A program made the position numbers and the translations under genes. From Nemertoderma westbladi (Eukaryota; Animalia; Xenacoelomorpha), in contig JAUCBJ010005881.1 in the NCBI GenBank assembly GCA_032718475.1, positions 1 through 64,000 of the forward strand: a stretch of DNA of 64,000 bases, in the 5' to 3' direction. Position 1 is the stretch's first letter, and each line of letters opens with the position of its first letter. This document shows positions 12,549 through 47,899 of this stretch, one piece after another. The notes beneath the pieces were generated by a model that saw only the letters and a list, made by a program, of their open reading frames with translations, did no database searches and was not told the DNA's origin.

Positions 12549-13499
12549 TGAAACTTTCGTGTGTTAAAAAGAAGTGGAAGTGGAAAGGCAGAATTTCTCC
12601 AACAAAAAATGGGGGGGGGGGGGGGGGGGGGAGTGCAGACTCAAAATTAACACATCTAATCAAAATTAATGAAATCATTTATTTGTATTATTACTGGAGG
12701 TCACTTTAGTGTGTATATCTGTCTGTCTGTTTGTCTCTTGCTCTGTCTGTGTGTTTGTCTGTCAAAAATTGAGAAATCAATAAAATTAACAAAACAATCA
12801 TAAATTTATGGTTTTTTTTACCTATTATTGTATATTTATTTAACATATGTATATATTTGTAAAAATAATTGAAAATAACCTTTGGTAATTGAAACCCAAT
12901 TATCTAATAATGAGATTATTGATTTATATTTAATTATTTTATTTTATTTATTTTATTTTATTTATTTAATTTATATAAGTGCTGAGCTGCTAACAGGTAT
13001 CCAGCGGGGCCTGGCGAATTTATTTAAAAATCTTCCTCACAAGAAGGGGGGGGGGGGGGGGGGGGAGATTCTCCAAGGTGGGTGCCTTGGCCCCCTCCCC
13101 CCCCCCCCCCCCCCAACCTGGCTACGCCATTGTTATAATGTCTACATCAATATCAATTGAATGTTCGACTGCAGCTATGTGATAATAAAGCCTTCATCTA
13201 AAGTTATAATATGCAATAAAATCTCTCTGTAACGCCGTTAAAATTTAAAATTTTCGACTACAATAAAAATACGATTACTTTTGCTACAAACAGTTTACAA
13301 CGCACTACAGTAGTGCTGTAGATCGCATCAATAATCCCTATGGCCAGCAATTCAACTTCTTATGTAACGGTACTGACTGAACTGTACAATCGATACAACA
13401 CTCGCAATGTTATATAACTCTTTGGGAATGAATCCAATGCAACTACGGAGAGATATGTAACAAGGGATTATTAGGAATTATATAGAACGAGTTGGGATT

Positions 13500-14789: not shown

Positions 14790-14918
14790 TATAGAATTAT
14801 ATTCTCTAAATGCCGTGGATTTTCAAAATTTTTATTTTATTCGAATTAACTTTGCTAAAGATTACATTAAGTCCTCATTTGTATTTGCTATATCTATTTG
14901 TACGATGATTAGTCAAGT

Positions 14919-15003
14919 GGTTCAGTAGCTCAGTCGGTAGAGCGTTGGAAATTATATGTAGTGTGTATTGATTTCGAATCCTAGTAAGTGCGAATTATTT
15001 TTT
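14919..15003 (+). ncRNA. tRNA-like Pol III module embedded in LTR U3 (second copy 27501-27585)
   Basis: TAGCTCAGTCGGTAGAGC (A box/D arm), GA(G/T)TTCGAATCC (B box/T loop), T6 run; acceptor and anticodon stems do not pair, so it is not a functional tRNA. Confidence 0.55.
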
Positions 15004-15069
15004 GTGCAGAATTTCAACTCATTTAAATTGGCCGCTACAAATTAATTGCATTTACTCGAAGTAAGGTTA

Positions 15070-15240
15070 ACCAATGAGACTGTAGTTATTAGATTGTAAC
15101 CAATGTCGTACGAGTTATATATTTGCTGGACCAATAGCTATCTTTAAAAACCTGTTAGAACTCATAGAACAATCGAGAATTTTCTCGATTGATTGTGGCA
15201 CAAATTTGGTATAAAAGGTGCGATTTCGTTCATTAGTTAT
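15070..15240 (+). promoter_or_regulatory. Putative Pol II promoter of element 1 LTR
   Basis: Three CCAAT motifs, TATAAAA 15210-15216 and an Inr-like TTAGTT ~25 bp downstream. Confidence 0.6.
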
Positions 15241-17497
15241 CTCTCTCTATCTTTCTTTCTCAGTTACATTATTTCAGATTACATTGTTTATTGTATAATA
15301 GTTATCGTTTGATTTTGTAATAAAAGTTAGAAATACTTGTCACATCTGCCCTTTTCTATCTGTTTTATCATGCTTCACCACGGTGAACCCAACTGAGGGA
15401 CAGGATGGCTGGCTAGACATCGGGCCGCAGCAATGAACGGGAACATCAAAGGAATGTAGACAGGAATCAGGAATGATATCATCTTAGTTATTCGCCCATC
15501 GCCTGAAAGGTTAGACAGCGTTCGATGCCTTGCTACCTAAGTATAAGACCAAAGATCGAAGGTAGAGGTAGTGACACGCTGTACGCCTAAAATTACATCT
15601 AGGGACTGTACTGTCTTAATTCAGGAAAAAACCGCAGTAGACCTTCATATTCCTACGGGGGGGGAGAGGAGAGAGCTCAGGCAGAGATACTAGTACGCAG
15701 ATAGGACGTAGGCACACCGGTACAAGGCATACACATTGGTAGGGTGCAGCAAACTGTACGCCTAACTCTTGCTAAGTACAGGTGCGTCTGCGACTATTTG
15801 TAGTACAATGGTGTCCATTGCATCAGAACTTGTCGGCCAGGAGAGTTGCTGCGTTTCACCTGAATTAGGATTGTACTGTTCAGGCGGTAGGGCAGTTTAC
15901 GACTAGGCGCAAATAAATTGAGGCTAATTAGGGATACTAACATCTACCGTGTCCCCGCCGACATCCTGATAGGAAGTTACCAAGCCCACCTAGGTAACCA
16001 AAATTCTAGATAAGAACGCCAGGCTAGCTATTAGTAACCGTACGCCTACTGTAGTAAACTAACACATTTCTTCTTAGTATTAGGGACCTGGTAAATTAAA
16101 ATTGCCGAATTCTGGGCGTAGTATTAATCTCATGCCAGAATTTGAGTCCTGGAAATACGCAAGAGGGGAAGGAGCCTTATCATTCGTGAGTATTGGCCCT
16201 ACAAGTTACAAAATTAGAATATTCGTAAAATGCACACCGTACCCAGTAATTATATATGTGAAGGAGCAAAACTGATCTTGACTGTTCAGAATTAACACAC
16301 GCGCGTTAAAAATTATTTACACCTCAAAATATATAAAATTAACTTTTGTCCGTACTGCGCTTTGCCCGCTAGTTAGACATCTCCAAATCTCTGCACCTAG
16401 CTAGCGTCTCTTTCGCCCAACCATATAAATCACACCGCGGCAAAGTATACGAGCCCTTTAGTCCGTCAGCGAGTCAGCCTGATTTTAGGATTCGCTGCGC
16501 GGGATTTTGTTTTATCGAAGTTTGTCTGTTCGTAGACTGTTTTCTGCCTTACCGGTTATAAGGGACCAATACTGCAATATATTCGCTTACTTGGAGTTTA
16601 CTGTTTTGGTGAGAAGGTCGGATTTATGATTTGATTCACAAACTTTACAGTAAGATATTGCAGGTATTGTTACTGTCTCTTCGAATTAGTAGGAATGTGT
16701 TTTACTGAACTACAGTTCGGTAGGACTAAAGTTATTTGAAAATTTTGTATTTTGAGGTAAAAGTTTATATTTGATTAGCTAAGTGCTAATTTTTTGAAAT
16801 AAAATTTTGATTTGAACCGCGTGTAAAATTTTTGGAATTGAATACCGGTGTTTAAAAGGATTTAAATACCATATTGTACCGGTACAAAATTTTCGTAAAA
16901 GTAAAACCTAACTCTTTTGTTTTTCAGGATTCAGAACTCATTTCTAGACTGTAACGAGAGCAAGACCGTGTTTAGCAAGTTTGGGAGATAGATAACCCAA
17001 CAACTTTGGTTGGGAAAATCGCACTTCGTCCGCAACGCTGGAAACGGAAAGGTTCACGTCCGGTTTGTATCTGGGAATCTGTTTTTCTGGAGAATTATTG
17101 GAGTGGGTGATTTCGAAAAGTTGCATAAATAAGTTAGGCATTACAGTATTAGTTAAAATTTATTGTGGGTTCCACTGTCTCAAGTATTTATGCATTCCGT
17201 ACGATTTCTTTGTTCATTGCTGAATTAGTCCGTATTATTGTATTTAATTTACCTTTTGATAACGCATATCGTTATCCGATTTATTTGTTATAAAATTGGC
17301 CGCTAGGCTAATTTTATTATATACTTATTCCGTGACATTTATTTGCTGTAAAATTGGCCGTTTAGGCTAATTTTATCCATCTGCTATAAAATCGGCCGGT
17401 AGGCTAATTTTATATGACTGTAATTAGTACTGTTTAAATATAAATACGGTAAATTTGATACTTTGACACTCACTTTACTTGACTTACAACTACTGAA

Positions 17498-24370: not shown

Positions 24371-24902
24371 TTAGGAGTTTACAAATAGATTTCCACGTAC
24401 CTGTACACTGTAGTAAAGACAGCGGTAGAATTCCATTGTCTTTATATGTGAACATTGAGGGTAATACCCTTATGTATCACATAGGAGCGGGATTTGTAGG
24501 TATAAGAAATGGAATTATACTTGGAACTCACAATATTGAGACATTTTCGAAACTTTAGACAATCCATTTGGATTTGAAAAAATTTTAAAATTTTCTCCAG
24601 TGAATAGATTTCAGGGTACAGTCGGGTGGAACTTAAAATTAGAGAAACAAGAGAGGAAGACTTGCGAGCCTTTCTTAAAATTTTAATTAAATTTTACACG
24701 GTCTTGTTTCAATAAGTTACGTCAAAATAGACTTCCCTATATTTATTACTAATTCTTGATTGCTTATTTTCTGATAATAGTTTGGGATCAAAAAGTGAGT
24801 ATTTTAGACTCACAGCCAGTTTAGCCCAAATTCGTTTTTTATTTCGGCAAAAATTTTAGATAAGAAGCAGCGTGTCATTAAAGAAACCCTAGATCTTAGG
24901 CT

Positions 24903-26576: not shown

Positions 26577-27371
26577 AAGGGAGGGCAAGGGTGGACGGAA
26601 GACTCGTGAGCCTTTCTTGTGAATTTGTGATTTATTTGAATTATATGTTTTATATTTAATTAGTAAGTTTTGTATTCTGGAAGAACTCATATTTAGTAAG
26701 ATTTATATTTAGTAAGAATTTATATTTTGCAAGATTTATATTTTATATTTGTGATTATTCCGAACTTATGCAATTTATATTGTTCCGAATACTATGCAAT
26801 TTATATCTTATAAGCAGTATTTGTATTTACAGTGAAATAGAAAGTAAGAGTAGATGGAAGACTCGTGGGCCTTTCTTATAGTTTCATTTGTAAAGTGTTA
26901 TATTTGTATTTAGAAAGTTTTATAGTTAGAAAGTTTTGTACTTAGAAAGACTCATATTTGTAATTATTCCGAACTTATGCAATCTACATTTAGGCACGAA
27001 AGTATTTGTAATTATTTGAATTTATGCAATATTTGAGATGCAATAGTAGATGGAAGACTCGCGAGCCTTTCTTATGATTTCATTTATTTGTATTTGTAAT
27101 TGTTTGAATTTATGCAATATTGAGATGCAATAGATTTATATTGGTGAATTTAATTTAGATTTATATTGTACTTACTTAGTAAAGCCTTAAATATGTAAAG
27201 TTTGAATTTGTAATTATTTTGTATCGAATTATTATGTAGAAAGGAAGTATTGCTTGAAATTTAATTTGTAAATATGTAAGTACGCGACGCCCTAAGTATT
27301 CTATAATTTGATTGATTATTGGTGAAAACCGTATATTTTATGCACGATAATATCCTGTTTTCATGGAGCGG

Positions 27372-29269
27372 TATAGAATTATATTCTCTAGATGCCGTGG
27401 ATTTTCAAAATTTTTATTTTATTCGAATTAACTTTGCTAAAGATTACATTAAGTCCTCATTTGTATTTGCTATATCTATTTGTACAATGATTAGTCAAGT
27501 GGTTCAGTAGCTCAGTCGGTAGAGCGTTGGAAATTATATGTAGTGTGTATTGAGTTCGAATCCTAGTAAGTGCGAATTATTTTTTGTGCAGAATTTCAAC
27601 TCATTTAAATTGGCCGCTACAAATTAATTGCATTTACTCGAAGTAAGGTTAAGCAATGAGACTGTAGTTATTAGATTGTAACCAATGTCGTACGAGTTAT
27701 ATATTTGCTGGACCAATAGCTATCTTTAAAAACCTGTTAGAACTCATAGAACAATCGAGAATTTTCTCGATTGATTGCGGCACAAATTTGGTATAAAAGG
27801 TGCGATTTCGTTCATTAGTTATCTCTCTCTATCTTTCTTTCTCAGTTACATTATTTCAGATTACATTGTTTATTGTATAATAGTTATTGTTTGATTTTGT
27901 AATAAAAGTTAGAAATACTTGTCACATCTGCCCTTTTCTATCTGTTTTATCATGCTTCACCACGGTGAACCCAACTGAGGGACAGGATGGCTGGCTAGAC
28001 ATCGGGCCGCAGCAATGAACGGGAACATCAAAGGAATGTAGACACGAGACAACCCGCAATATCATCTTAGTTATTCGCCCATCGCCTGAAAGGTTAGACA
28101 GCGTTCGATGCCTTGCTACCTAAGTATAAGACCAAAGATCGAAGGTAGAGGTAGTGACACGCTGTACGCCTAAAATTACATCTAGGGACTGTACTTTCTT
28201 AATTCAGGAAAAAACCGCAGTAGACCTTCATATTCCTACGGGGGGGAGAGGAGAGAGCTCAGGCAGAGATACTAGTACGCAGATAGGACGTAGGCACACC
28301 GGTACAAGGCATACACATTGGTAGGGTGCAGCAAACTGTACGCCTAACTCTTGCTAAGTACAGGTGCGTCTGTGACTATTTGTAGTACAACGGTGTCCAT
28401 TGCATCAGAACTTGTAGGCCAGGAGAGTTGCTGTGTTTCACCTGAATTAGGATTGTACCGTTCAGGCGGTAGGGCAGTTTACGACTAGGCGCAAATAAAT
28501 TGAGGCTAATTAGGGATACTAACATCTACCGTGTTCCCGCCGACATCCTGATAGGAAGTTACCAAGCCCACCTAGGTAACCAAAATTCTAGATAGGACGC
28601 CAGGCTAGCTATTAGTAACCGTACGCCTACTGTAGTAAACTAACACATTTCTTCTTAGTATTAGGGACCTGGTAAATTAAAATTGCCGAATTCTGGGCGT
28701 AGTATTAATCTCATGCCTGAATTTGAGTCCTGGAAATACGCAAGAGGGGAAGGAGCCTTATCATTCGTGAGTATTGGCCCTACAAGTTACAAAATTAGAA
28801 TATTCGTAAAATGCACACCGTACCCAGTAATTATATATGTGAAGGAGCAAAACTGATCTTGACTGTTCAGAATTAACACACGCGCGTTAAAAATTATTTA
28901 CATCTCAAAATATATAAAATTAACTTTTGTCCGTACTGCACTTTGCCCGCTAGTTAGACATCTCCAAATCTCTGCACCTAGCTAGCGTCTCTTTCGCCCA
29001 ACCATATAAATCACACCGCAGCAAAGTACACGAGCCCTTTAGTCCGTCAGTGAGTCAGCCTGATTTTAGGATTCGCTGCGCGGGATTTTGTTTTATCGAA
29101 GTTTGTCTGTTCGTAGACTGTTTTCTGCCTCACCGGTTATAAGGGACCAATACTGCAATATATTCGCTTACTTGGAGTTTAATGTTTTGGTGAGAAGGTC
29201 GGATTTATGATTTGATTCACAAACTTTACAGTAAGATATTGCAGGTATTGTTACTGTCTCTTCGAATTA
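27372..29269 (+). repeat. Element 1 3' LTR (1898 bp)
   Basis: Direct repeat of 14790-16688; preceded by PPT-like GGAGCGG; followed by TSD GAGAT. Confidence 0.95.
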
Positions 29270-29287
29270 GAGATAGATAACTAAACG

Positions 29288-30467
29288 TGTAAAGGCTTTT
29301 GCGGAATTAGCCGGTTATTTTCCCGGTAAAGTACTCTGTAGTTGGTTTAACAGGCATAAAAGGCCGTGTCCTTACTGTACTGGTGTTTTAGAGGACATAA
29401 AAGTCATTTCTTCTGTATGTGTACTTTAGCGGACATAATTCGCAATTTTATGACGCAATGCGCCAAATCCTCTGTAAACAGTGTAGCTACCATGACGACG
29501 GCTAACAGCTGATGCTGTACACGTGGAGCCTTTTCTTTGTTCTCTGTTCCTTCTTTGTTCGGTCGACCAATCAGAGTGTTTTTGCCTCTGTGTTAGAGAT
29601 TGTATATAGAAACTCGTGGAGTTGAGTCAGTATGTGATTTTGTCCACAGCCTACAACACAGGCTTTGGAACCTCCGTGTTTCAGTCTTTAGCCCAACATT
29701 AGTAGGCTTAATTATAGAACGTATATCTGTTATCAATCCAAACTCAATAATCATAACTTACTCACTCACTCATAACTTAACAAACCATTCATAACTTAAC
29801 ATTTTACTGCTTTTACTGTCGGTTATTCATTATATTTGTTGATGGAATATTATATTTGGAATACTGATAAATAATCAGACACCCCAATCTTCTTGATATA
29901 CTAAAGGTTAGAGAGACCGGTTACATATAACGATTGCGACTTACATTAAGTGGTTTGAAGTGAATCTAATGCTATTTTATAGGCCCTACATGTATTGTCT
30001 GTTGTTCTCCTTATATGTGACTAAAATTAATGAAGGTCGGCAGATCAGTGTGCAGCATTGTGCAGTATTGTGTATGATTGTGATTGATAACAAAGCATCT
30101 CCTAAAGAATGCGCCATATACGTGAATCTATAGCCATTCCGTTGTGTCTAGTTTAAGTCATAACTCTGTTTATATATTTAAAGCGCCACGTCCTAAAGGA
30201 ACTGTTAATATTTCCCGAAAGTGAATAATATTTGTCAGAGATTATATATATTACGATCAGTCGAATAATACAGTAGGCCTACCCCGCAATACGGTTAGGC
30301 TTCCGAATCCAGTCTCCCGGGTATATCCAGCGGGTGAATGATCGCGCATAGACTGGCTTCGGCTAATGTAGTGTATCAAATACTTGTCATAGGCTAAAGA
30401 TGATCTATCATCTAAAAGACATCCCAATTTGGCAGGTTAAACTGCTAAAGGTCTGAAAACGCGAACA
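29288..30467 (+). repeat. Element 2 5' LTR (1180 bp, TGTAA...GAACA)
   Basis: About 11 substitutions versus 46720-47899 by eye; CCAAT ~29567, TATATA 29603, Inr-like TCAGT 29627. Confidence 0.96.
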
Positions 30468-30734
30468 ATAACAGATATACCTTCTGTATTGCAGTAGGCA
30501 ATAACGCTGAAGTACCGGACAACCGGTACCTAGTAGGCCTGACTACCTAACCACCCGGACCGGTACCTACAGCAGTACAGGTACATCAGTATTATTCGAT
30601 TGTGAAATTGTATACCGGTAGGCTGTTTAAGAGATTAGGGACTGTACACCCCTTGTTTCTTTTGGAGCTTACTTATTTCTGTCAGTTTTATTTATTTGTA
30701 GGCCAGTATTGAGCAGAAGGCGTGTAAGCCTGCT

Positions 30735-31320
30735 CAGATTGTACAGACAATTTGTAGGCTAGACTGTTGTCTGACTGTTGTTAAGTCTGAAGGGACTGTA
30801 GTGTGTGTAGAGCATATGTCCGAAAAAGTACTAGTTAGGAAAGTAGGGGCTGCCAGTGCTGTGAGGTGAACCCCCCAAGAAAGAATAAGTCGTACTACTC
30901 GGTTAGAACGCATACTAACTAACCATTTCGGAGTCTGCATATATTGTAGTTTATTTAGGCTTGATAGTAGTCTGCCAGCGTTTGGTCTGTACCTTGTTTG
31001 TGTAGTTTGTATGGGTAGCGTAATAGTTCTTATTTAGATAATTTGTAGGCTGGATTTTGTCTGACTGTTGTTAGGTCTTGAGAGATTTCGGTGTGTGTAG
31101 AGTGTATGTCCGATAAAGTGCCAGTTGGGAACGTAGGGGCTTCCAGAGCTGTGAGGTAAACCCCCTCGAAAGTATAAGTCGTACTACTGGGTTAGAACGC
31201 ATACTAACTAACCATTTTGGAGTCTGCATATACCGTAGTTTGTTTGGGCTTGACAGTAGTCTGTCAGTATTTGGTCTGCATTTTGTTTGAGTAGTCTGTA
31301 CGCGTAGCGTAATATTTATT
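30735..31320. repeat. ~290-bp diverged tandem duplication in element 2 leader
   Basis: Two copies of AATTTGTAGGCT...AAGTCGTACTACT...GGAGTCTGCATAT...GTAGCGTAATA. Confidence 0.85.
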
Positions 31321-32650
31321 ATTCAGAGTTTATGCGATTATTCGCAACATTCATATCCCCAAGTTTATTCCTACAGTAATTGTGCTTGTTATATATACCG
31401 TTATAGTTAAACTAACCCCGGTACTACATCAGGGCTGCTTGGCGTAGGTAAAGACTGGTGATTTTGTGCCCCGGTCACTCCAGCAGATACCGTGGTTCTT
31501 TTAGCTGTTCAAGTATTTTTAACTACTGATTATTTGTTGTATAAGTACTTGTACCTAATTTAGGGTTTAGTGTACAGTGCTTTCCGAAGGTGATTAGTGT
31601 GTAGGCAGTATATTTGTGTTGTAAAGTGGTTAATAGGCACGTTGGTTCTGGTAGACCGCGGTAATTAACTTCTAGGTAGGAACACTCCGTGATACATAAC
31701 GTAGTACTTATAGCGCCACGGCTATAAGTCGTCAGACGGTGGTATTTTTCTATCTGGACAACGCAGTATATTTACTACTACTTATTATTTTCAAATACCG
31801 TAGTACCCTGTCCTTTGTAATAACCAGATATTCTAACCCTTTGTTAGGCTGGTTAGTAAACTTCTTGTAAAACTACCCTAAAAATTTGTACTTGTAAATT
31901 TTTGTGTTTATTTAGAGATTGTAATCTCACCTCGAATTGTACGTAATTTGTAGTATTAAGTAACTTAGGTAAATTAGAATTATTTGTTTTAGTGTCCAAC
32001 AAGTAGCACTTCACTGAGAGCGCACAGCTTCTGTGTAGTGACTCCCCCCAGAAATAATAACATTTATTTCAAATATTGACAAAACCCATTTAACGGGTAA
32101 ATATATTATAAATCAACTCAAACCGATTTATAAAATAGTAGGCCTGCCATACAACAATTAGGTCTCAAGATCAGTTAGACTACTGCTCAAATAACGGTAA
32201 TCAAGTAAAGCAAAGTAACCAAGTAACCCTAAAAATTCAGAAATTCAATTATTCTAAAATAATTGATATACTATTTACAATAGGCTTATTATATTTATTT
32301 CTATAAATTTAGGCTGAAATTATACCGGTATTCTGTAATTAATTCTAGTCCATAATTATACTTATATATACTATAAGTGTAAGCTGTATACCGGTATTCA
32401 CGATAGGCCTATTATATATTTATATATACTTGTGCTGAAATTACATACCGGTATTCTGTGACTAATCTAGTCTGTGACAATACTTATATATATATACTAT
32501 AAGCATACCGGTATTCTAATATATTATATATATATTACGCTACACTGAGTAGCAGTATCGGTAATTAATTACTAGGCTAACAGTGATACTGAATTACTAG
32601 ACTTGCTTAAACTGTAATATAGCAGTAGGCATTCAACTGTACAAACCAAC

Positions 32651-35600
32651 ATGTCCGACACAAAGCAAAACCTGTCAGATAGTCTCCTAGATACAACCAT
32701 ATGTGACCCAGACAGGAGTGTGGAACGTGTAGGACCGAAGTTCAACTCACCTCCTACTGTAAGAAAGATCATCCCTCCCGTAGTAATATCAGACCCTAGG
32801 CTAGTCCAACATCGTAGGTCTATCATAGGCACTTGGGCTCAGGTCAAGCGGGACCGAGAAGCAGCAGAACAGCAACAACCCGTGAGCCAATAACTTATTT
32901 CTCAGCGGCCCGACAGCTCCAGTAGTGCGGATACTGTAGAGCTGACACCCGAACACGGCGCAAAGATGACAGATGTGGTTTATTCGGACCCCCTTCTCAT
33001 CCTTCCTGCAGCCGTACTCACTAGGTTATTGATTGCGGTGGAAGAACACCAGATCGATTGGGCGAGAAATAAGCGATAAACTAAAGATAGTTATGCGGGA
33101 TACACAAGGGAAGAACTGAAGTCTATTGTCGAGTCGCAATGGAACTTCCCCGGACCCGGACTCCCGTTTGATTTATCAGAAGCTGCCTGGGAAGACATAC
33201 ACAGGATGGGAGTAACCAAGGAAACCATCGATCCAGCTGTGTGGAAGAGGTCCGCAGCCGGATACGTACAGGGATTCTTCAGCTCCATGGAGCGATTAGA
33301 AGAACAACTGTTTCAACAACCCCAAGGACCTCAAGAGCAGGGACAGCTGCTTTATCAAGTTAGAGAAAGAATTCTACGAATCAGGCTAATCTTATCGGCC
33401 TTTGAAGAGGCTTCTAAAAGAAGACAAGACACGTCGTTGCAAGTTGCCGTAAAGACTTGGTTTCAACGGGTGAGTCTCCAGGTGCAAGGAACGGCTCAGT
33501 GGAAAGCCCAGCTGGATGAGCGCTCAACCCATGGAGAATCAACAGATGCTACTTTTTCCCAAGTGGAAAGTGAAGCGACGGCAGAGAAACCGCATAAGAG
33601 GAATGCCATTGACATCTATCTGTCAGACTATCAACGTTTTTTAGGTGATGAAGAGTTGAGGAGAAGGCTAGATGGACTTAGCCCTAATAGTGAAGGAACC
33701 CAGCGTGTGTTGGACGCCATCGATGTGGATATGAGAGCTGCGAACCAAGCTAGATTTGATGAATGCCTCCGCATCACTAGAGTCCAAGAAGAACAAGTGA
33801 AGAAAAAACGTATAGAAGACAGAAAGACAGCGGCAGTGGCAGCAGCAGTGGCAGCGGCAGAAGCAGAAAGAAAAGCGGCAGTGGCAGCGGCAGAGGCAGA
33901 GGCAGAAGCGGAAAGAAAAGCGGCAGAGGCAGAGGCAGAAGTGGAAAGAAAAGTGGCAGCGGCAGCGGCCGAAGCGGAAAGAAAGGCGGCTATGACAGCG
34001 GCAGAGGCAGTAGCAGAAGCAGAACGGAGAGCTTCCGAAGAAACCACCCAATTAGAATTGGAAAACATTCAGGAGAATCAAGACTGCATAAATAAACAGT
34101 TAACAGCTAGTAATATGCAGATGATGAGTCGATCTACTCCCAAAAGACAGGGATATACATCATCTGAGGAAGGCGATACCACCGATACTGAAGGCGGAGG
34201 AAATAGATCTCGTCTAAGCAGATGTAAAAGAACATCCCACCGTCAGAAATTGCCTGATTTGCCCCCAGCTGTTAGAAGGCAACTAAATAACACAAACTTA
34301 GGTAGTACAGAACCCACAGACCAAATAATTAAAATAGAAAGACTCCCTACTATAATAGATGAGCCTGAAATAATTAGGCCTGTTCCCAAAGCCACCCTTT
34401 CGGTGATAGAGACACCTGTACTCCCTGAACCTACCTCTAAATTCCCTCTGCACAGCACTAAGCTATCTGTGCCCCACAGAACCACCCTTGAAAATGTTCA
34501 TGTCCTGGACTCCGAGCGAAATATTCATGATTTGTCGCCCGTTGTCCCTCATCCGCCCGCTACAACGTTGGCGCCTCCCGCTTCGGCGGTCGAGTGGGTA
34601 GATGAGGGACGACGGGAGATGGGTCTCCTGCTCGGACAGCTGAGGGAACAACATTCTCGCTCCTCTCAGCAGGCCCAGGAGATGGAGGGAACTGTGCAGC
34701 AGTTAAAGGGAACGATTAGAGAGAGTAGGTTAGAGTTGCAAGAAGTGCAGCAAAGTATCGCGTTAGAACGCGATAAATTAGTAAATACACAAAAGGGTAT
34801 ACCACCAACCCCGGTAACAATGTGTCAACCTGTTAGGTCTGAAGTATTTCATGCGCAAGGTGTGGAGCCTACACACATATATACTGCTAGCGAAGTAGAA
34901 ACTCCTATAGTGAACCCTATTAAGGGTAATTATAGACCTGTTGATAATGATATTCCCTATAGACCTGATCATAATCCGAGAAATTTATATACCGATAACT
35001 CGATATTAAATAACACGATGGCCCAAGAAAGTTTTACGCGTCAAATGGCTAGAACCGAAGTCCGTCAAGCGGTAAAGGTGGGAGAGATAGTCAAGTTCAA
35101 TGGAGAGGTCAATGGAGAGGAGATGAAATGGTTACCTTTTAATGAATATTATAAAGATAACATACAGAACTCTGTACTATCTAATGGGGAGAAACTTAGA
35201 TTCCTCATCGAGTGATTGGAAGGATCTCCCAAGTTAATGGCGTTAAAGTTTATTGGACATCCAGACGGATTAAGACAAGTTTGGGATACACTAAACATCA
35301 GGTATGGTAATAGGAATAACATAGCTAAATATTTGTATGCAAAATTAGTAGCGCCCCGAAAGTTCATTAGCAGCGGGATAATAGAGTTTTCCGATGAGAT
35401 TCAAGAGATCTGTAGACAATTAGATTGGTTAGGTAAGTCTCATGAATATCAGAGTTCTATGGTTATTGGAGCCGTGGCTTCTACTTTACCGAAGGGTGGA
35501 GTAGGTACACGCTGGGATAAGAAAGTGTTATATATGATGGAACAACAACGACGAGACCCTACCATGGCTGATCTCATGTCATTCTTAGATGGAGAAGTGA

Positions 35601-38600
35601 AATTACAGCTTCTAAAACAGTCCAGAGAGAAGACACCGGAAAACAAGGTAAGTGAGAAACCCGTTTCTAGGAGAAAGGTAACACCAGTGTGTTATACAGA
35701 CGACTGCGAAAGCCAAACTTCTCAAGGAGAGGATAGCGGGAAAGACACTGAAAGATCTTATTATGTCAATAAAATGCCTAAAGAACAGGTAAGTAAATTC
35801 AAGTCTCGAACCAATGACAGGAGAGAACAGGTAAGAAAAACTCCTCCTACGTCTCCTAAGAGAATTCAGGTGAGAAAGCCGAAGAAAGAACGAGTGTGCA
35901 CAATGTTATTCAAAATAAGGTAAGTAACATCAAACCGAAATGTGCGCTATGTGACGGGACCCACCGTTTGAATATGTGTGATGAATTCCTGAAGAAATCA
36001 TTAACGGAGAGACGGGAAGTCATGTGGGATAAGCGGTTGTGTTATAATTGCCTCAGACAAGGACACCAACGGCGAACCTGTTACTCCGACACAAGGTGTG
36101 CAAAGTGCGGTGCGAAACATCATATCTTGTTGCACACTGAATTTGAGCGAAACAGCCAGAGTCAGGTAAGTGATTCCGAACTACATGTCCAATTCAGTGA
36201 TGTGAACGACACTGACCAAAGTTCTGAGATGGAAGGATTCTATACAGATGAATTCTCCGACGAAGGTGAATCCTGTTACATGATAAATACCGCAGTGTAT
36301 CGAGCACTTACGTATGAAAAAGACACAGACAGCGACCTCACCCTAACTACTTCTGATCGACGACCATCTTGGAAAGCGCCACCTTACAATGTAGGAATCC
36401 GAGAATTTCCTGTAGTACAGGTAAGGGTCCACGGACCTAAAAGGAGTTATGTAGTGAACGCCCTCCTTGACTCCGGTAGTACAGGAACATTCATAGAAAA
36501 AGAACTAGCTGAAGACATCTTTGCTGGACAACCCAAGTTCAGAACTAAGCTAAACATGTCAGGAATTATGCAGGTTTGGAAATCTACAGTAATAGCGGAT
36601 TATTATGTAGGTGCGTTGTCCACCCCCCAGGATGAACTAGGAGAACATAGTATAAGGTCCGTAAAAATGGTGGCGATAAAGAACTTCGCTACCACCCAAG
36701 TGGAACCTTATAACTGGGATGAGGACGATTTCACCCAGCAGCTGGAAATACCTAGATTCAACACCGATTACCCTGGAGTGCAAATACTCATCGGTCAAAA
36801 CGCGCATGAAGCGCTCGAGACATTGGAGAAACGGCCCGCTCAACCGCAACCACTACAAGCTTATGCGGGAAGAACTAGAGTGGGTTGGTACTTTACTGGC
36901 CCTTCCCGTAGAACTCTCATGGAAAGATTACCGAAAGACCAGGTATATCAAGTAAGAGAATGGGAAGTCGAGGGCAGTGAGTTAGACGATCCAACTGAGG
37001 GAACACCATACTCCTCAGATAATGACGATGTCCACCAACTTTTCGATGAGGAGAATACCATCGATCTCCTTGAGGAAAACGAGACTTGGCAAAACCAAGG
37101 GAACTTATGTCAGCTCCTTCTTCCATCAGAACGAGACGACTATAACGACGAGCTTAATGACGTCATTGAACGTTGTAATGCCAAGACTCGGGATGAACAC
37201 GCCGTACGATTCTTTACTCAAGAGGCTGTAGAGCCCAATTCCTACGACAAGGCCCTATCGGTAGAGGAAGAAAGAGCCAAGCAGATCCAAGAGACAACTA
37301 CACGTTTTCTTAAAGATCAAGGTAGATATGAGATCGGTCTACCTTTCCGAAAGCGAGAACCAAAGTTCGTAAACAACAGACCCTTGGCGGAGAAAAGAAT
37401 TGCTCAACTACATCGACGCCTTACGGCAAATTCTTCAGCTAAAGAAATGTATCAAACGCAGTTGGAGAAATTTATTAGTAAGGGATATGTGGAGCTAGTA
37501 CCGGAAGAAACACTTATAACTGAGAGAACGTATTATTTAACTCACCATTACGTTCCCAAACCCGGTAAACCCCATGAGGTACGAGTGGTGTTTGACGGCT
37601 CCGCCCTCTATATGGGCCAATCCCTTAATTCTGAATTGTTACCCGGACTCAACTTACTCCAATCCTTGTTGGGAATACTCTTAAGATTAAGACAATATTC
37701 AATCGCTTTCGCCTCAGATATAGAAGGCATGTTCTTACAAGTCAAGGCGCTGGATAGGGATCGAGATAGCCTACGATTTCTGTGGTGGCCTGAAGGAGAC
37801 CTCAACCAGAAACCGGTGGAGTACTGGATGACCATCCAGGCTTTTGGGATAATCTCAAGCCCTTCAAACGCCTGTTCAGTGGTGCGTACCACTGCGGATG
37901 ACAACCGAGATGCCTTCTCTAAAGAGGTGATTGACAACATCAAGCGGGATATATACATGGATGACAATCTAAAGTCCCTTCCATCAGTCGAAGAAGCCAT
38001 TGATGTCGCTAAAGGAACGGTAGAGTGCTTAAAAATAGGTGGATTTCGATTAACTAAATTCACCAGCAACTCCCGTGAGTTTCTGGAGTCGATCCCGGTA
38101 GAAGATCGAGGAGCGAAAGACCTGGATCTAATAAAAGATGATCTCCCAGAAACTAAGACCCTTGGTTTGAAATGGGACACAGAAAGAGATATCCTGTTTT
38201 TCCAACTAAAACAGCGAGATAATCCAGTTCGGACTAAACGTATTTGTTTAAGTATCCTGAGCACTTATTTCGATCCATTGGGATTTATTAGCCCAGTTAT
38301 ATTGATTGCTCGGAGTTTAGTACAACAAATGTGGCTTGAAAACCACTCATGGGACGATCCACTTAAGGGAGAATTGTTAAAGAAGTGGATGAAATGGGAA
38401 GATTCTCTACCAGCCATCGAGAACTTTATAATTTCCCGTTCATATTTTGGTCATGTTCTCCCTACGTATTCCTATCAACTCCATGTGTTTGGAGACGCCA
38501 GCAATATCGGAATAGGTATAGTAGCCTACCTAAGGGTGGAAACTCCGGACGGAATCAAAGTTGCCTTGGTTACCTCTAAGGCATTAATAAACAATAAGTT

Positions 38601-40857
38601 GAAAGTTCCTCGAGCGGATTTAAAAGCGGCTCTATACGCTACAGCCATCGGCCGGAATGTAACAGAACAGATCGACTATCCACTGGAGAAAACTGTCTAT
38701 TGGACCGACGCTTTGCTCGTGTTGGAGTATATAACCAATGAAGTCTGTCAGTTCAGCGTCTTCGTTACCAACAGAGTAGCCATTATACTCAGTCGCACAA
38801 CGATGGATCAATGGAGACATTGCCCCGGAACGATTAATCCAGCAGACATCGCTTCCAGGGGAGCAACTCCACAAGAACTGGTTGATACTCCAGACTGGCT
38901 AGGTGGACCCGACTTCCTCTACAAAGAAGAAGAAGAATGGCCTCCTCATCTTACTACCACAGAGATTAGACAAGCCAAGGGAGTGGAGAAAGTCAAACCT
39001 AAAACTCAGGCGAGTAAATCGAAGTTATTCAAACCTATGGTAGATCTGTCTGTACTACATACTTCCGGAGACGACGCCTTGGATCAGAAACCCACAGCCA
39101 CAAATAAACTTGTTGTGGAAATCCGTGAGAAGGATTGGACATCTGGAATACCAGACGCCTCGCAAGGACTCTCACCTCTCCTGCAGAGAGCGATACATCA
39201 CTACAGTTCCTGGAATCGGCTCTGTAAGGCCGTTACATATTTAAAAAGATGTTTTCACCATCACTACTCCGGGATGAAGACCAAAAGTGATACCGCTCCA
39301 ATAACATCGGTGCAGGTCCATGTTATTAAAGATCTTCCCAAATATAAGATATCCGACAGGTTTCTGAAGGAGAAGATCAGTTATCAGGAGCATGAAGAAA
39401 CCAACAAGCAGATGCTGAGACTCCTGCAATGCTATGAGGATTCCGATAAGTATTTCCTGTTGTTGAGAAATCCGCAGATGCACTTAAGGGATCGTTTCTC
39501 TAGCACAATGATAGATGGGTTGATACGTGTTGGAGGAAGATTAACGAATGCTCCATTATCCTTTGACACTAAGTTTCCCATACTCATTAGAAATCTTGAA
39601 ATACAAGTCAAGATGATTGTAGACGTTCACAGCAAACTTTATCATGCTGGTAGGGAATGAGTTCTTAGCGAAATTCGAACTTGCTATTATTTTTATAAAC
39701 CCCGTAGAGCTCTGAACCAAGTTCTTAGGAACTGCATACCCTGTAGGAAAGCATTCAGTAGGCCTTTAACACAGCGAGAGGCAGAATTACCTAGGGAACG
39801 AGTAAGCTTCTATGAACCACCCTTTACTAATACCGGTGTGGATTTATTTGGCCCTATTGAAGTATATCGTGCTAGGACTATAGTCAAGAGATGGTGTGTC
39901 ATCTTTGTTTGTATGACTTGTAGAGCTATCCATCTCGACAGGGTGAACGATTTATCTACCAACAGCTTTCTATTAAGCTTACGACGACAGATCGCTCGCT
40001 TTGGCACTAGTAACACGATGAGATCTGATAAGGGAACAAACTTCATTGGTGCCAACAATGAAATCAAAGCTTACGTCAAAGATTGGAACCAAAGACAGGT
40101 GGACGATCAGCTACGAGTAACAGCGTCTAGCTGGACCTTCAACGCCGCCGACGCCCCTTGGTGGGGAGGAAGTTGGGAGAGATTAATAAGAAGTGTGAAA
40201 ACCGCATTTCACTTTATAGTGCCGTGCCGCGCGTATCTCACCGACGAACTTTTGCGGACGTTAATGGAGGAAATCGCCGCCTATCTCAACGAGAGACCGC
40301 TTATGCCAGTCTCATCGAGTCCCGATTCCCTGGAAGCGCTAACACCCGCGCATTTCCTACTGAAGAAACCTGTAGCCATGCTCCCACAATCGGAAATCAC
40401 AGACGGAGACGAATACTGCCGGCAAACTTGGCAACTCATGCAGTTGTTATCCCGTCGTTTCGCTGACCATTTCGAAAAACATTATCTGCCCACGCTACAA
40501 CTTCGAACTAAGTGGTTTGCGCAGCAAGAAAACGTCAGCGCTGGAGACATGGTTCTTATTGTGGATGTAGATCTTCCACGTAAGCGGTGGCAGACAGGTC
40601 GTATCATCGAGACTCACATCTCGGATGACGGTTTGGTGCGATCGGTAGAACTCGTCGTCATGCGACGTAACTTCAAGAAACCGGGAATTGTCTTCGAGAC
40701 ACAGCAGCTCAATCGCCCAGTTGGTCGCTTATGTTTACTGGAAAGGGACAGAGAACTCTCCGGAAACTATGGGAGGCAAGATACTCTTCCCACGACCACC
40801 TCCCTAATCCAACAAACATCTAGGGACTATAAATTTTATTATAATCGTTTTCTTTAA
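32651..40857 (+). pseudogene. Element 2 gag-pol (Gag-PR-RT-RNaseH-IN), disrupted
   Basis: Gag frame 32651-35923 has stops at 32891, 33077 and 35213, then a frame change near 35900; CALC/CYNC/CAKC knuckles, ALLDSGS protease, RVVFDGS, DIEGMFLQV, YMDD RT, HVFGDAS/YWTD/NPADIASRG RNase H; stop at 39658, then in-frame integrase (DLFGP, SDKGTNF, GGSWERL). Confidence 0.93.
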
Positions 40858-42410
40858 TTTTACTTAGTAGAACGTTATTTTAGCGATTATTTAGTAGATT
40901 AGTGCAATATATATTCGGGTTTATTACTTAATTACTTATATATTATATATTTAGTGCGACGGCGAGAAATAATTATTTTTCTCTTTCCTTACTGTCCGTA
41001 TTACATTACAAATACGTAATTACAGTAAGATGAAATGTCCGTACTTATTAAAGTACAATAAAGCTCCTACTATATTCAAGTATTATTGGTAAAGTAGAGT
41101 ATTAGGAATGCAAAATTCAGATCCTCGTGTCTCGGCTAAACCAAGCTCTGGGTAGACCTTGGAAACGACTTGCCTCTTCTCACTGACATTGCTTCGTGCG
41201 ATATTGCTCTCATACCGTATAGTAAATAATACATATAGTAGCGTGATGTCCTTTTAACAGTAGCGTATAACGCAAAATAAATCTGTTAAACCCTTTGACC
41301 ATCTGTAATTCTAGTCGATTAAGATATCGCGGCACCCACCGATATACTTGAAAGACAAATTCTAGAATCAGTGGTTAACGTCCCCAGACAAGTTCTGGAA
41401 TAAACTGGTGCCCATCCTAAATATTAATTATTAATATTTATAAAATCTGTCGAAATTGTAGATCCTTTAAAATTCTAGTCGATTAAGATATCGTAGCACT
41501 TACCGATACTCTTAAAAGGTCAAAATTCCTAGAATCAAGGATCCCAGTCCCCAGACACGTTCTGGAATAAAATTGTGTCTATTTAACATTAAATAATAAA
41601 ATTTACGGGAATAAATTTAAATTCATATATTTCAATGAATTTAATAAATTGTCATTTTATACAATTTATAACATTCCCAAAATTCCATTAATTAATAGAT
41701 CATGGGAGCGGAGATTCACTCTATTAAGTGTATTTGTGTGCGAGAATCTCCAATATATAGTCAATAGCCGATAAAATTCATAAAATCATATATAGAGAGG
41801 ATATTGACAATTAAAGAATTACTATTAAATAGCATCCCAGATCTGTATGCATGAGAATTACCCTAATTCTACCGCTAGCTTTCCATAATGTCACCATGGC
41901 AACAACCACGCTAGAATTAGAAGTGAGTTAAAAGAACAATAAAGGCTTGCCCCATTGAATAGCATAAGGAATAAAATAGCACATTGCTAGTATCCCAGGA
42001 TACCCAATAATAACGTGGCATTCTGGAAGGCACTGACTAAAGGACAAATGGCCCGAATATGTGCGGTTTGTGACAGTTGTGTGGAATTTGTGCGTTTATA
42101 GGTGAATGTTACTACTAAAGTGTGTTTACAGTAGCGAGTCGCAATTGTGAAAGTAGCCCTAACTCTCCAGTAAGAACCTGAAGTATATCTAAGCCTTTGG
42201 GACGGACGGTGGAGTGACTCGTGCTGGTTGTTGTGGTCGTTGTGCAGCTACGACGTTGGCGATAGGCACATCGGCGAAAGTACACCAGCGCTGAAGATCT
42301 TACACTGTCCGGGGGCAAAAGAGGGGTAGGCAGCGACGCCCGCTAGCCTAATATATAAACTCATTATAATATTGATAAACTCATAGCAGATATGACTGAG
42401 TTGATAGAAG

Positions 42411-45400
42411 ATGATCTTGGTATCAGGGAGCGATACTCTACCTTTACAAGCGTTTGTCGATAGCTTGATACGCGGCGACGCTGGTCCAACTACTACGGAG
42501 GATGATGGTCATTATATCGAACCACCAATGTCCCCGGAGCAACTTACGCGTGAATTGGATTATAGAAAGTTCACCGCTCGCTATACGCATCGTAATGGTA
42601 CGTATATGGACTTCTTAACTACTGGCCATCCTATCGATTTACACGATACGGACGACGTAGACACCGAAAGGGAAATGGTTTTATTTAAATATCATACCCA
42701 GCGGAGTCGGAACGATAAACCGAGAATAGAACACGAGAACTCTATTCGAAACAGACTCGAAAGGGAAGACGTTGAAGAGCCGGATAAACGCAGCGACTTC
42801 AACGATTATCTGGAATTCCTGAGAGAGACATACCTCAATATTGCCAGTCAACAAAATCTCGAAACTCGATATCCTCAAGGTATACATCATGACCCTATGA
42901 TAGAACTCAAACGACTCTCTTTCACTATGATGTATCTCACCGCCGATCGACCGCTACCTGTCGTCCCAGATAGCTTCGAACAGATGGAGGAATATTGTAA
43001 AACTGGAGAACGATCACCCGCGTTTCCCCTGCAGGACGTGCGTCTTTGGTATTACTGCGACGAGTGCCCTAGACCCAATCAGCAAACGGAAAGACATAAA
43101 CATCCGCGGAGACGTTGCGCTAAACACAGTTTTACACGATATACTTATGGGAGTTTCGAGCGAAACCTGTTCGACGTATCCCCTACGGTTGCTCGACTCA
43201 AACGATCCTTGAACAAACCAATGATCAGAGTTCCGGAATACTCGGTCAGACCTCCTCATTCCTCAGTTAGACCTCAGACTCTTGATCCTAATAGTATCAC
43301 GGATCCTCCCGAACTGTATTCGCTGTTCAAAGATCTAGTGTTACCCGAACAGTTGATCGGTGGCACTCCGGTAGTAGGCTCACTAGATATTCGCCAACCC
43401 TACCTAACTGGATTGGGACGCGGTCATCTAATATCGCCGTTTAACCCACACAACCGTCCCGGCTTCACCTCGATACAACCCGTTACGGAAGTCGAAGAGA
43501 GCGTCGTACGAAATGCGTTAGACGCTATTCGGCAGAAAATTGGAAAGGGAACTTACGATTGTTTGGAGAAACGTAAATTGCAACAACAAGTCCAAGCGGT
43601 GAAGGAATTAGCTTTACCCCAGTTCGAAAGAGAAATACAAAATCTCGAGGAGGACATCGAATGTGGACGAACCCACTCTTTACAAGAGTTCCTAGATGAG
43701 CGTCTACAACAACAAGCGGATGAAAATCAGCTCGAGGAGAGACATATAGAAATGGATGAGAGAGAAGAAGCAGCTTTAGCTCAACCCGAAGCTCAAATCC
43801 TTATGACGGATCTCTACTCTAAAACCATCCTTCATCCCTCGATGGTTCCCAATTTTGGAGACAAACTCTTTGCGACGGTACAACCCCAACCGGTTGATAT
43901 CAACCTAAGATCTCGAGATCTTATCGCTGACGCTCCCATGTTGCAACGTCCGCCCATCGAAGCCGCTCGTGTCGATGGTATACTCGTTGAACCTCCGGAC
44001 AATAGAGTGGATCTTGTCCGTCGCATGGTACACGATGTAAACATACGCGCTAGACCTTTACCGGACTCGTTTTATGGGATCAAAGATCACCCTTATTACG
44101 TCAACCTAACACAATATTACATGGTAAAACCGGAAGATCCTACACATAGTCTGAGGTTTCTGCCTCTCATAAATCCTCTCGATCTTGTCGAACTCGAACA
44201 ACTGCATAAACATCTGGATCAGTTAGTTAAGATAAACTCATTTCGAAAACCATACAATGTTTCCAGAATAGAGAAAGAAACAATACCTCCGTATAATCTT
44301 GATGGATTCATCAAAACTCGTTTAGTACACTGGAATCTTGACGTGTTATTCGAGGAAGAAAGAATACAACGATATGGAGATGTGGAAACATATACCACAC
44401 AATATTTAAAGTATAGAGACCTACCTAATGCTAGCGAATGCGCTACCTTGTGGCATCCTGTGGGAATGACCCTCGAAAACGCCACTAAAGAGTGGAATGA
44501 GACTCTTAACGTTATCGAGATGTATGGAGTTGTCACCTACGACAACGAAGGTAGCGTTCCGGTTGGAGAACTGGGAACTACGCGGATGATACACATATGA
44601 GGACTCGCTGGTTCTGCCCACGTATTTACTCGAGCGTGTTCCGATGTGATTGATTATTCTTTTGAAACTCTTACTGAGACACAAAGAGACTCCGACATGG
44701 ACAATTCGAGCTCGCGCAGCGTTACGTCGCCGACACCAAGCGCAAACCGGCCATGGGTATCGATGGATCGATGTTACCCCAGCCCGTGCTCGAGATGTTG
44801 TTTAACGAAAGAATCCTTAAAATCGGCTCAGCTGTTTATGGAGATCTACAAAACGACTTTCGGAATATGGAGAACATTCCATACCCTTTCGTGGATACTC
44901 AGCTGATTGCTCCCTGGGCAGAAGGCCGAGGTTTCTTCTGCACTATGTATGCCAATACACCCAGCGGCATTACTAAAGTACAACGAACCTCCATCGGACA
45001 TCTTGCCTTTCAAGAATACGGATGGAATTTCAAGGTTGGAAATCCTAAAAATTACCAACAAGTATATGGAGATCATTATTCTCGTTTATACTTTGATGGA
45101 CCATTGACCGCACCTGGCGCCGTGTATAGCTTTATGAGTGTTCCACTTCGTCCCTCCTTAGCTATATACACGATCTTTGAAAACGCAGCACTTGCCGGTT
45201 GGCTAGCCGATGTGTGCAGTCGTACCATACGCGCCCATCCCTTAATACTTGGAACCAAACTCGCCAAGTTAGATGAACACAATAAATTCATCCGCTTCGA
45301 ATGTTTCAGGCGCTTTCTGACTCCGTTCCATAACGTTGATAGTCAGTTCAAGGACCGCGCTCTGACCAAACTCAGCCTAAGAGACTCAGCTGCGGAGAAG

Positions 45401-46641
45401 CTAAACAGCGCGGGATTTGCCCTCTTTCAGGACGTTTGTATACAGAACTTACATTCATCTGTTATACAAAGACCCCGAATACCCACGGGTTATTCTGTCG
45501 TGGAAGTTCAGACAGTGGGTCCGCTTGCGGAGACAGCCGCACCTACCTCAGCTATGCAATTGGAAGACGAACCAATCTGCTTAGAGTCTGAAGCGATCCA
45601 GCCTACAGCGCCCCGGAGCAGCGATAACGATTACGTCTTGGAGTGGTATCAAGGTCCACAATGTCTCACCGCATACGATTATCGACACGCCAACTATGTT
45701 TCTCGAAAACGTTGCCGATTATGCGCATCGAGAGACCATTTCACCCCTATGGACTCAGACGTACCCTGCTCCTATTTCCACGAACAACCGATGATGGAGA
45801 TCTATTGTGCGTATTGCAGACTTAATAACTCGCATATTTTTGCAGTCTGCCCCCAATTTATGACCCAATGCCACCACTGTCAACTTAAAGGACATGCCAG
45901 TTATAATTGCCCCTTTAACCGCGATTTAGAAAGCGTAGATGAGATGATTACCCTGCGCTACATCCGAGCTTGGGAAGCGAACGCGGATTTACATTGTGAG
46001 TCACGCCATCGCTACTACCCTGGACGCTCTTACGAGGGAGTTTACGCATTCCATCCTTATTTATTCGCGTCTGTGGAACAAAAAACACGCACACCGAGTT
46101 ACGAACTAATGAAGCGTGTTGGTGAGTGTATTTCAACCAAATTTGTTCGAAAATATCTTAGGAACGTCAATCCTAACGATATTACTTCATATCATTTGAT
46201 CAATTTCATCCGTCAAGACCCTGAGTATGGCGATTTATTTATCAACTCGCACCCTGAGTTACAGGAAGTATCTCGACGGCCCTACGAATATCGAGCCCGA
46301 GAACGCGAGCTGGAAAGAACCATTAAACCAAGAAGTTTCTCACCACTCACGGTCCGCCTACCGCCATTGTCCAGACGACCCGTCAAGGACCCGTAGGAGC
46401 TGCTGTCCTAAGACACGCCCTAAAGGCTGTTAGACCTCGCTCCACTGAAATTGATATCGATCAACCAGGTACCTCGACCGGCGGATACAGCGATCGTAAT
46501 CCTAAACCTTCTGATGCAATTGTATTGCACCCTTCACCCAGGAGCTACAGCCCTCCTAGTAAAGTGGCTCGCCCCAAAGAGAAAAGGACTCTTGCTAACC
46601 TCAAAAAACTGCGTAAACGCCGTCCGCGTAAGAAAGACTAA
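42411..46641 (+). pseudogene. Element 2 accessory ORF: unknown N-terminal region, DEDDy 3'-5' exonuclease-like domain, triple zinc knuckle and basic tail (broken into pieces)
   Basis: 729-aa ORF ends ...YGVVTYDNEG (ExoI-like) at TGA 44598; the 547-aa ORF has LPQPVLEMLFNERILKIG...GD (ExoII-like), FVDTQ, SIGHLA and PLRPSLAIYTIFENA (ExoIII-like), then knuckles; a third frame (46327-46641) ends KKLRKRRPRKKD*. Confidence 0.7.
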
Positions 46642-46719: not shown

Positions 46720-47899
46720 TGTAAAGGCTTTTGCGGAATTAGCCGGTTATTTTCCTGGTAAAGTACTCTGTAGTTGGTTTAACAGGCATAAAAGGCCGTG
46801 TCCTTACTGTACTGGTGTTTTAGAGGACATAAAAGTCATTTCTTCTTTATGTGTACTTTAGCGGACATAATTCGCAATTTTATGACGCAATGCGCCAAAT
46901 TCTCTGTAAACAGTGTAGCTACCATGACGACGGCTAACAGCTGATGCTGTACACGTGGAGCCTTTTCTTTGTTCTCTGTTCCTTCTTTGTTCGGTCAACC
47001 AATCAGAGCGTTTTTGCCTCTGTGTTAGAGATTGTATATAGAAACTCGTGGAGTTGAGTCAGTATGTGATTTTGTCCACAGCCTACAACACCGGCTTTGG
47101 AACCTCCGTGTTTCAGTCTTTAGCCCAACATTAGTAGGCTTAATTATAGAACGTATATCTGTTATCAATCCAAACTCAATAATCATAACTTACTCACTCA
47201 CTCATAACTTAACAAACCATTCATAACTTAACATTTTACTGCTTTTACTGTCGGTTATTCATTATATTTGTTGATGGAATATTATATTTGGAATACTGAT
47301 AAATAATCAGACACCCCAATCTTCTTGATATACTAAAGGTTAGTGAGACCGGTTACATATAACGATTGCGACTTACATTAAGTGGTTTGAAGTGAATCTA
47401 ATGCTATTTTATAGGCCCTACATGTATTGTCTGTTGTTCTCCTTATATGTGACTAAAATTAATGAAGGTCGGCAGATCAGTGTGTAGCATTGTGCAGTAT
47501 TGTGTATGATTGTGATTGATAACAAAGCATCTCCTAAAGAATGCGCCATATACGTGAATCTATAGCCATCCCGTTGTGTCTAGTTTAAGTCATAACTCTG
47601 TTTATATATTTAAAGCGCCACGTCCTAAAGGAACTGTTAATATTTCCCGAAAGTGAATAATATTTGTCAGAGATTATATATATTACGATCAGTCGAATAA
47701 TACAGTAGGCCTACCCCGCAATACGGTTAGGCTTCCGAATCCAGTCTCCCGGGTATATCCAGCGGGTGAATGATCGCGCATAGACTGGCTTCGGCTAATG
47801 TAGTGTATCAAATACTTGTCATAGGCTAAAGACGATCTATCATCTAAAAGACATCCCAATTTGGCAGGTTAAACTGCTAAAGGTCTGAAAGCGCGAACA
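46720..47899 (+). repeat. Element 2 3' LTR (1180 bp)
   Basis: Direct repeat of 29288-30467; preceded by GGGTGCGG; followed by TSD AAACG. Confidence 0.96.

Follow-up and report, generated by a model that had tools for sequence, protein, structure and literature searches.

A BEL/Pao retrotransposon of Nemertoderma westbladi whose primer-binding position complements its own LTR: a candidate for self-priming

Introduction

Which RNA primes minus-strand DNA synthesis in an LTR retrotransposon with no tRNA site after its 5′ LTR? The question is raised by an element, E2, in the DNA of Nemertoderma westbladi analyzed here (assembly GCA_032718475.1, contig JAUCBJ010005881.1, positions 1 to 64,000 of the forward strand; this whole stretch of 64,000 nucleotides is referred to as the window). 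E2 is a BEL/Pao retrotransposon, and the ICTV profile describes BEL/Pao elements as tRNA-primed and their replication as poorly understood (PMC8742986). A sequence-only reading of the window had proposed that E2 primes with its own RNA, as has been described or predicted for Tf1/sushi elements, Tcn1 and the copia element TAR (excerpts of PMC6317226, PMC4600332, PMC5341516, PMC5006619, PMC6934838 and PMC3601003).

Results

Structure and classification of E2

E2 occupies positions 29288-47899 (18,612 bp, ~18.6 kb) and comprises the following parts.

29288..30467, forward strand: E2 5′ LTR, 1180 bp, TG...CA ends, 99.1% identity to 46720-47899
33080..40857, forward strand: E2 BEL/Pao gag-pol, in four open pieces, with three in-frame stops at or between the pieces and one frame change
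42408..46396, forward strand: two extra ORFs of E2, 730 and 572 aa stop to stop, no Pfam match
46720..47899, forward strand: E2 3′ LTR, TG...CA ends

The 5-bp TSD AAACG flanks the element at 29283-87 and 47900-04; with this TSD intact and its LTRs 99.1% identical, E2 was inserted recently. The gag-pol contains DUF1759, protease, RT, Peptidase_A17/RNase H and an integrase with DUF5641. The Pfam matches to DUF1759, Peptidase_A17 (3e-35) and DUF5641 identify E2 as a BEL/Pao element; its protease and YMDD motifs lie upstream of RNase H, giving the domain order PR-RT-RH-IN, and its top protein matches all carry PF05380. These three domains, the domain order and an LTR length within 0.2-1.2 kb are shared with the Belpaoviridae (BEL/Pao; Semotivirus), for which the ICTV profile lists an 18-nt site that binds tRNA-Arg or tRNA-Gly by its 3′ end, genomes of 4.2-10 kb and LTRs of 0.2-1.2 kb (PMC8742986). 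Unlike the elements of that profile, E2 has no tRNA-Arg or tRNA-Gly site, measures 18.6 kb and carries two extra ORFs (PMC8742986), but the tRNA site and the 4.2-10 kb size are descriptive traits and BEL/Pao membership rests on the polyprotein.

The 2.2-kb leader of E2 includes two 289-bp tandem copies at 30744-31327. Elsewhere in the window, an ORF with RVT_1 and DUF6451 (60417-61919) marks a separate reverse-transcriptase element.

The position after the 5′ LTR pairs with the E2 LTR

The sequence-only reading had identified a 13-nt complementarity between the LTR and the position directly after it. The segments concerned are listed below.

29713..29720, forward strand: imperfect extension of the E2 primer helix, with one mismatch, six Watson-Crick pairs and one G-U pair
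29721..29733, forward strand: candidate E2 self-primer of 13 nt, exact complement of 30468-30480; predicted 3′ end at 29733, inferred cut site
30468..30488, forward strand: E2 primer-binding position at offset 0, first 13 nt perfect, 20/21 paired; begins A-T; no TGG
47153..47165, forward strand: 3′ LTR copy of the E2 primer segment, with the same letters as 29721..29733

Direct sequence comparison bore out the exact reverse complementarity of 30468-30480 to 29721-29733, and verified the identical, equally complementary copy in the 3′ LTR. The reported end of the duplex at the LTR boundary also holds: as the LTRs at 29288-30467 and 46720-47899 are bounded by TG...CA and the TSD AAACG, their ends are fixed and the helix begins at offset 0. 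Likewise, the 13 nt after the 5′ LTR contain no TGG, the first of which occurs at 30663, 196 nt on and after 195 nt free of it. The candidate primer segment lies 734 nt before the end of the LTR.

Several comparisons set this pairing apart from background. Each of the two 13-mers (primer segment and binding position) is found nowhere else in the window, and 13 nt at offsets 0-3 is reached in only 4/20,000 dinucleotide shuffles of the LTR. Among all 16,232 internal positions of E2, no other has a perfect complement of this length in the LTR. Past a single C-C mismatch the helix resumes, so that 29713-29733 pairs with 30468-30488 by 19 Watson-Crick pairs and one G-U pair in 21 positions, where the best of 500 random internal E2 positions reaches 15. 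The duplex is A/U-rich and its energy unremarkable, 23/400 random internal 13-mers binding the LTR equally well. Predicted self-primers are recognized in excerpts of PMC6317226 by 10 bp or more of pairing 0-5 bp after the LTR; with 13 nt at offset 0 and no tRNA site, E2 has the sequence features of a Tf1-type self-primer.

The neighboring element E1 keeps a helix with different letters

A second element, E1 (14790-29269), precedes E2 and offers a comparison at its own primer-binding position.

14790..16688, forward strand: E1 5′ LTR, ~1.9 kb, TA...TA ends, TSD GAGAT, 98.2% identity to 27372-29269
15646..15656, forward strand: E1 candidate self-primer, 11 bp with one G-U, pairing with 16689-16699 at offset 0
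16061..16071, forward strand: second E1 candidate, 11 bp with one G-U at offset 2, of the same length as the first
16689..16701, forward strand: E1 primer-binding position, begins G-T; first TGG at 16833

E1 has a single intact ORF of 2295 aa (17483-24370) with gag, protease and integrase. RT and RNase H are missing: where they would stand there is a repeat-rich stretch, and none of the ORF aligns to the RT or RNase H parts of E2. Judged by this predicted coding content, E1 is a BEL/Pao element that is non-autonomous but retains an integrase. Its LTRs have TA at both the start (14790-14791) and the end (16687-16688) instead of TG...CA; an LTR end in TA, with a TSD, is shared by one of the distant loci described below (L063).

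E1 and E2 form one branch in the integrase tree (support 100/99) and have an extra ORF in common (26% identity over 178 aa, E 2e-17), their LTRs failing to align. In E2 this is the second extra ORF, which is Cys/His-rich and homologous to the E1 ORF at 24900-26525; it has no database homologue of similar length and gives a weak zinc-knuckle lead in Atlas (0.81). A Pfam scan of the extra ORFs after pol (42408-46396, 24900-26525) returned no envelope match. Before the 3′ LTR, where BEL/Pao elements have a polypurine tract of ~10 nt, E1 and E2 alike carry a G-rich but mixed 10-mer ending GCGG. The two elements adjoin, 18 bp apart, within the same 34-bp satellite (13496-14789, 29270-29287, 47896-48311), each with its own 5-bp TSD, and a target preference of their lineage for this satellite is possible.

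Between the E1 and E2 sites, 8 of the first 11 letters differ and an 11-bp helix is kept. Since an 11-bp helix is found at 46/10,623 background positions, or at 158/10,618 (1.5%) over five offsets, the E1 pairing alone is modest support for self-priming. A G-rich purine run (15657-15675) lies directly 3′ of the first candidate. Motifs resembling the A-box and B-box of a tRNA-type promoter were seen by eye in the E1 LTR at 14925-14985, where ARAGORN and Rfam make no call.

Most readable distant BEL/Pao families match their sites to their own LTRs across a putative intron

Protein searches and searches of metagenome and viral contigs yielded no close copy of E2, the best protein relatives standing at 42-44% identity; the exact E2 junction of LTR and binding site was absent from the metagenome contigs searched, and a BEL alignment run against viral contigs gave 190 pattern matches, 0 of them confirmed as relatives. 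The BEL alignment search did return 78 metagenome loci at 29-45% identity, and of these 14 (13 families) have an LTR end fixed by the repeat and 11 an LTR start only; the other 53 stand outside the site counts. Two loci contain near-identical direct repeats, of 8.0 kb (L074, 1-14102) and 2.6 kb (L054, 1-9352), which suggest tandem BEL/Pao copies or assembly artefacts.

A site was scored as paired when 11 nt or more matched the element's own LTR at offset 0-3, contiguously or across a GTR...YAG intron. Eight of the 13 boundary-defined families have such a site, matching over 11-15 nt and in every case across an intron of 72-186 nt, with a GTAAG donor in 7/8. At the same threshold of at least 11 nt, swapped pairs of site and LTR scored in 4/210 cases and decoys in 6/900. 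The remaining families comprise L065, with a contiguous 10-nt match in an intron-less LTR of 177 bp; L030, the sole family with a clear TGG-type site; and three matches recognized post hoc, namely L052 (11 nt after moving the boundary by 10 nt), L063 (12 nt at offset 4) and L075 (10 nt, weak donor, TGG also present). A boundary-free scan of the 11 loci with an LTR start only found six spliced matches, which add four new families (two loci repeat the L044 family), against 0/72 and 0/11 in controls. Relaxed rules add L003, L045 and L048, but 4/72 controls also pass; L008 and L070 gave no credible match even under these rules. Predicted LTR junctions among the relatives include 7905-7980 in L021 and 6621-6692 in L029.

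From one family to another the site letters vary freely, with a mean of 4.8 of 11 shared. R-T opens the paired part in 18/19 relatives, post hoc cases included, versus a background of 0.12. A primer ending in A-C or A-U is thereby indicated. The same start stands at offset 0 in both E2 (A-T) and E1 (G-T), and it supports 29733 as the E2 primer end. All 8/8 relatives checked have a poly(A)-like hexamer (AATAAA or ATTAAA in six, AATACA in two) at a distance of 12-98 nt past the primer end, an arrangement that strand transfer requires. In 1/8 (L017) a TATA box 31 nt before the first primer base would leave a first exon of 5 nt. Pairing beyond the helix amounts to 0-2 of the next 9 positions in eight relatives and to 6 of 9 in E2, which fits a primer RNA reaching further 5′ in E2.

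No primer built by splicing was recovered in E2 or E1. The best E2 junction, at 12 nt, falls short of the contiguous match, no junction was found in E1, and a scan of the E2 LTR for GTAAG or GTGAG donors found none. A primer end produced by the first splicing step is ruled out, there being no GT after either site.

Placement of E1 and E2 relative to the spliced families

In the unrooted integrase tree, the sister of E1 and E2 is L030, the TGG-type family (97/92), and in the RT-RH tree E2 forms a long unplaced branch. For both reasons E2 may lie outside the spliced group, and the sister position of L030 may mean that all three do. The ready-made primer of E1 and E2 would reflect either loss of an intron or an older or separate state. 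L065 has an intron-less LTR while its tree neighbor L072 keeps the intron, and this suggests that intron-less LTRs arise if the 3′ LTR copy is spliced.

Predicted transcript ends and folding of the E2 leader

Two further segments of the E2 LTR bear on how the primer could form.

29567..29634, forward strand: predicted E2 promoter, by motif match only, with CCAAT at 29567, TATA-like at 29603 and Inr-like at 29627
30074..30133, forward strand: E2 LTR segment competing for the primer site in equilibrium folds, unexceptional among LTR windows

The primer segment lies ~90-100 nt downstream of the start predicted from these motifs (near 29629); a second TATA-like stretch occurs at 29709-29720. A scan of the E2 LTR for AATAAA and ATTAAA found neither; a GATAAA lies at +133, and the primer site is succeeded by an A-rich and then a U-rich stretch.

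In the equilibrium fold of the predicted leader, the primer site pairs with 30074-30133 (P ~0.95) and the primer helix has P = 0. The duplex probability is 0 for a leader starting at 29630 and in every fold that covers the leader to 30700 in full; it reaches 0.5-0.7 for starts at 29700-29721 with an end at 30560, and 0.5-1.0 only when the start is moved downstream, the arm is blocked or a 5′ piece is released. The binding site also forms a local hairpin in these folds. For comparison, the primer helix has a probability of ~1.0 in L065 and <0.2 in E1. Folds of 1-kb RNAs are unreliable and blind to Gag chaperoning, but as predicted here they lend self-priming no support. The competing arm is itself weaker than at least 8/39 LTR windows. 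We considered whether 30074-30133 might be a dedicated anti-primer removed by an intron at 29907-30435, and rejected it: the arm is unexceptional, the intron would have a weak donor, and progeny would not inherit an intron situated downstream of the cut.

Discussion

A model for self-priming in E2 and its alternatives

The sequence-only reading's central proposal, self-priming, is supported by E1 and by most of the readable distant BEL/Pao families, which keep a pairing anchored at the LTR boundary with different letters. From these sequences, E2 probably primes minus-strand DNA with its own RNA instead of a tRNA by means of a cut 5′ leader (probability roughly 0.7), and self-priming of either sort, including the variant discussed below, is a somewhat safer claim. 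The leader segment ending at 29733 would anneal to 30468-30488, either within one RNA molecule or with a co-packaged one. By analogy with Tf1, the RNase H of E2 is the most likely enzyme to cleave the RNA directly 3′ of 29733, which would leave a 3′-OH on an A-U end. An RNase H domain is present in E2 by Pfam and motif; primer cutting is its predicted role. Starting at 30467, reverse transcriptase would then copy the template as far as the cut, and the resulting strong-stop DNA would transfer to R in its 3′ copy, downstream of 47165; this would require that polyadenylation take place beyond 47165.

Most relatives would have the primer segment only once the LTR intron is removed, E1 and E2 carrying it ready-made. 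In tRNA-primed elements, plus-strand synthesis copies the primer into the binding site. If the self-primer is likewise copied back, the match would be renewed in each cycle, which would account both for perfect pairing alongside free change of letters and for a site that resembles a spliced junction. Inheritance of the intron would require an unspliced 3′ LTR copy.

Self-priming could also use the 3′ LTR copy, the 3′ end of the transcript being cut or trimmed to 47165 and folding back on the binding site. The identity of the two primer copies and the lack of a canonical poly(A) signal in the E2 LTR are compatible with this route, as is the TATA-like stretch at 29709-29720, which would start transcription past the 5′ site. 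The poly(A)-like hexamers downstream of the primer end in 8/8 relatives argue that this end is not a natural RNA end there, and the 5-nt first exon of L017, in this 1/8 only, would be too short for strand transfer from a 3′ copy. We therefore consider this variant unlikely. Internal cleavage and 3′ trimming had both been put forward for E2 in the sequence-only reading, and on account of the same hexamers cleavage fits better and trimming less well.

A reading slightly less probable again is that the helix serves E2 as a structural switch of the leader, in packaging, dimerisation or translation control, or is a relic of self-priming, and is not its working primer. The E2 site does have a competing partner at 30074-30133 and a local hairpin, and its helix runs on imperfectly where those of the eight relatives stop dead. 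Yet the helix begins at the LTR boundary with the conserved R-T, the competing arm is ordinary for this LTR, and an element inserted so recently shows no other primer site. The least probable of these alternatives gives the priming to a host RNA (a tRNA half, a tRNA fragment or another small RNA), with the LTR match incidental or shielding the site. The last letters of the E2 binding site may resemble an anticodon loop, and L030, the nearest sampled relative of E1 and E2, has a TGG-type site; half-tRNA priming without a TGG is known in copia lineages (excerpts of PMC6317226). A host primer would, however, impose a few fixed sequences, whereas the sites vary freely and each matches its own LTR only. 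Within 14700-33000, both strands included, Rfam finds nothing tRNA-like, its 3 matches being at chance level, and ARAGORN finds no tRNA in the window, nor in 60 of the 78 loci.

Comparison with known self-priming elements

By sequence criteria, E2 would work like Tf1, in a BEL/Pao rather than a Tf1/sushi element. As in Tf1 and Tf2 of Schizosaccharomyces pombe, Tj1 and Tf1/sushi, its site directly after the 5′ LTR complements its own LTR and there is no tRNA site. In Tf1, bases 1-11 anneal to the binding site, and cleavage by RNase H falls between base 11 and base 12 (excerpts of PMC7175516 and PMC4600332). E2 differs in carrying BEL/Pao domains instead of the Ty3/gypsy chromovirus polyprotein of Tf1/sushi, in the position of its segment ~90-100 nt after the motif-predicted start rather than in the first ~11 nt of the transcript, in a helix of 13-21 nt, and in having relatives that build the primer segment by splicing. 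The predicted self-primers of plant Tcn1 (gypsy) and TAR (copia) follow the same sequence criterion as E2 in other superfamilies and hosts, and excerpts of PMC6317226 give no intron-split primer for them; these predictions show, as far as those excerpts go, that self-priming arose in more than one superfamily.

The sequence-only reading knew of no equivalent in BEL/Pao, and this still stands: our literature search, whose scope excluded most subscription papers and Repbase notes, turned up no BEL/Pao self-priming or intron-split primer. Within the main text, the BEL/Pao survey PMC3118150 mentions neither primer nor PBS nor tRNA, and the terms PBS and tRNA are likewise absent from the Sinbad paper PMC554778. 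A tRNA-like primer of its own is reportedly encoded by a Cer element of C. elegans; the literature search returned no account of it.

Implications for BEL/Pao elements

More tentatively, there may be a large group of BEL/Pao elements of aquatic animals that dispenses with tRNA priming and has its LTR primer assembled by the spliceosome and cut after A-C or A-U. E1 and E2 would be its giant, satellite-inserted branch with extra ORFs, in which the intron was lost and a capped long leader is cut ~100 nt inside, a form of self-priming undescribed for any retroelement.

The self-priming model predicts RNA ends at one base, a primer end of A-C or A-U, and spliced junctions copied into the binding site; the intron-less forms, E2 and L065, are natural controls for the spliced relatives. 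If it is true, a tRNA-independent route in a third LTR superfamily would alter the current account of BEL/Pao, would account for the failure of tRNA-site searches on such elements and would let them escape control by tRNA fragments. In the spliced relatives, the onset of reverse transcription would be linked directly to host splicing.
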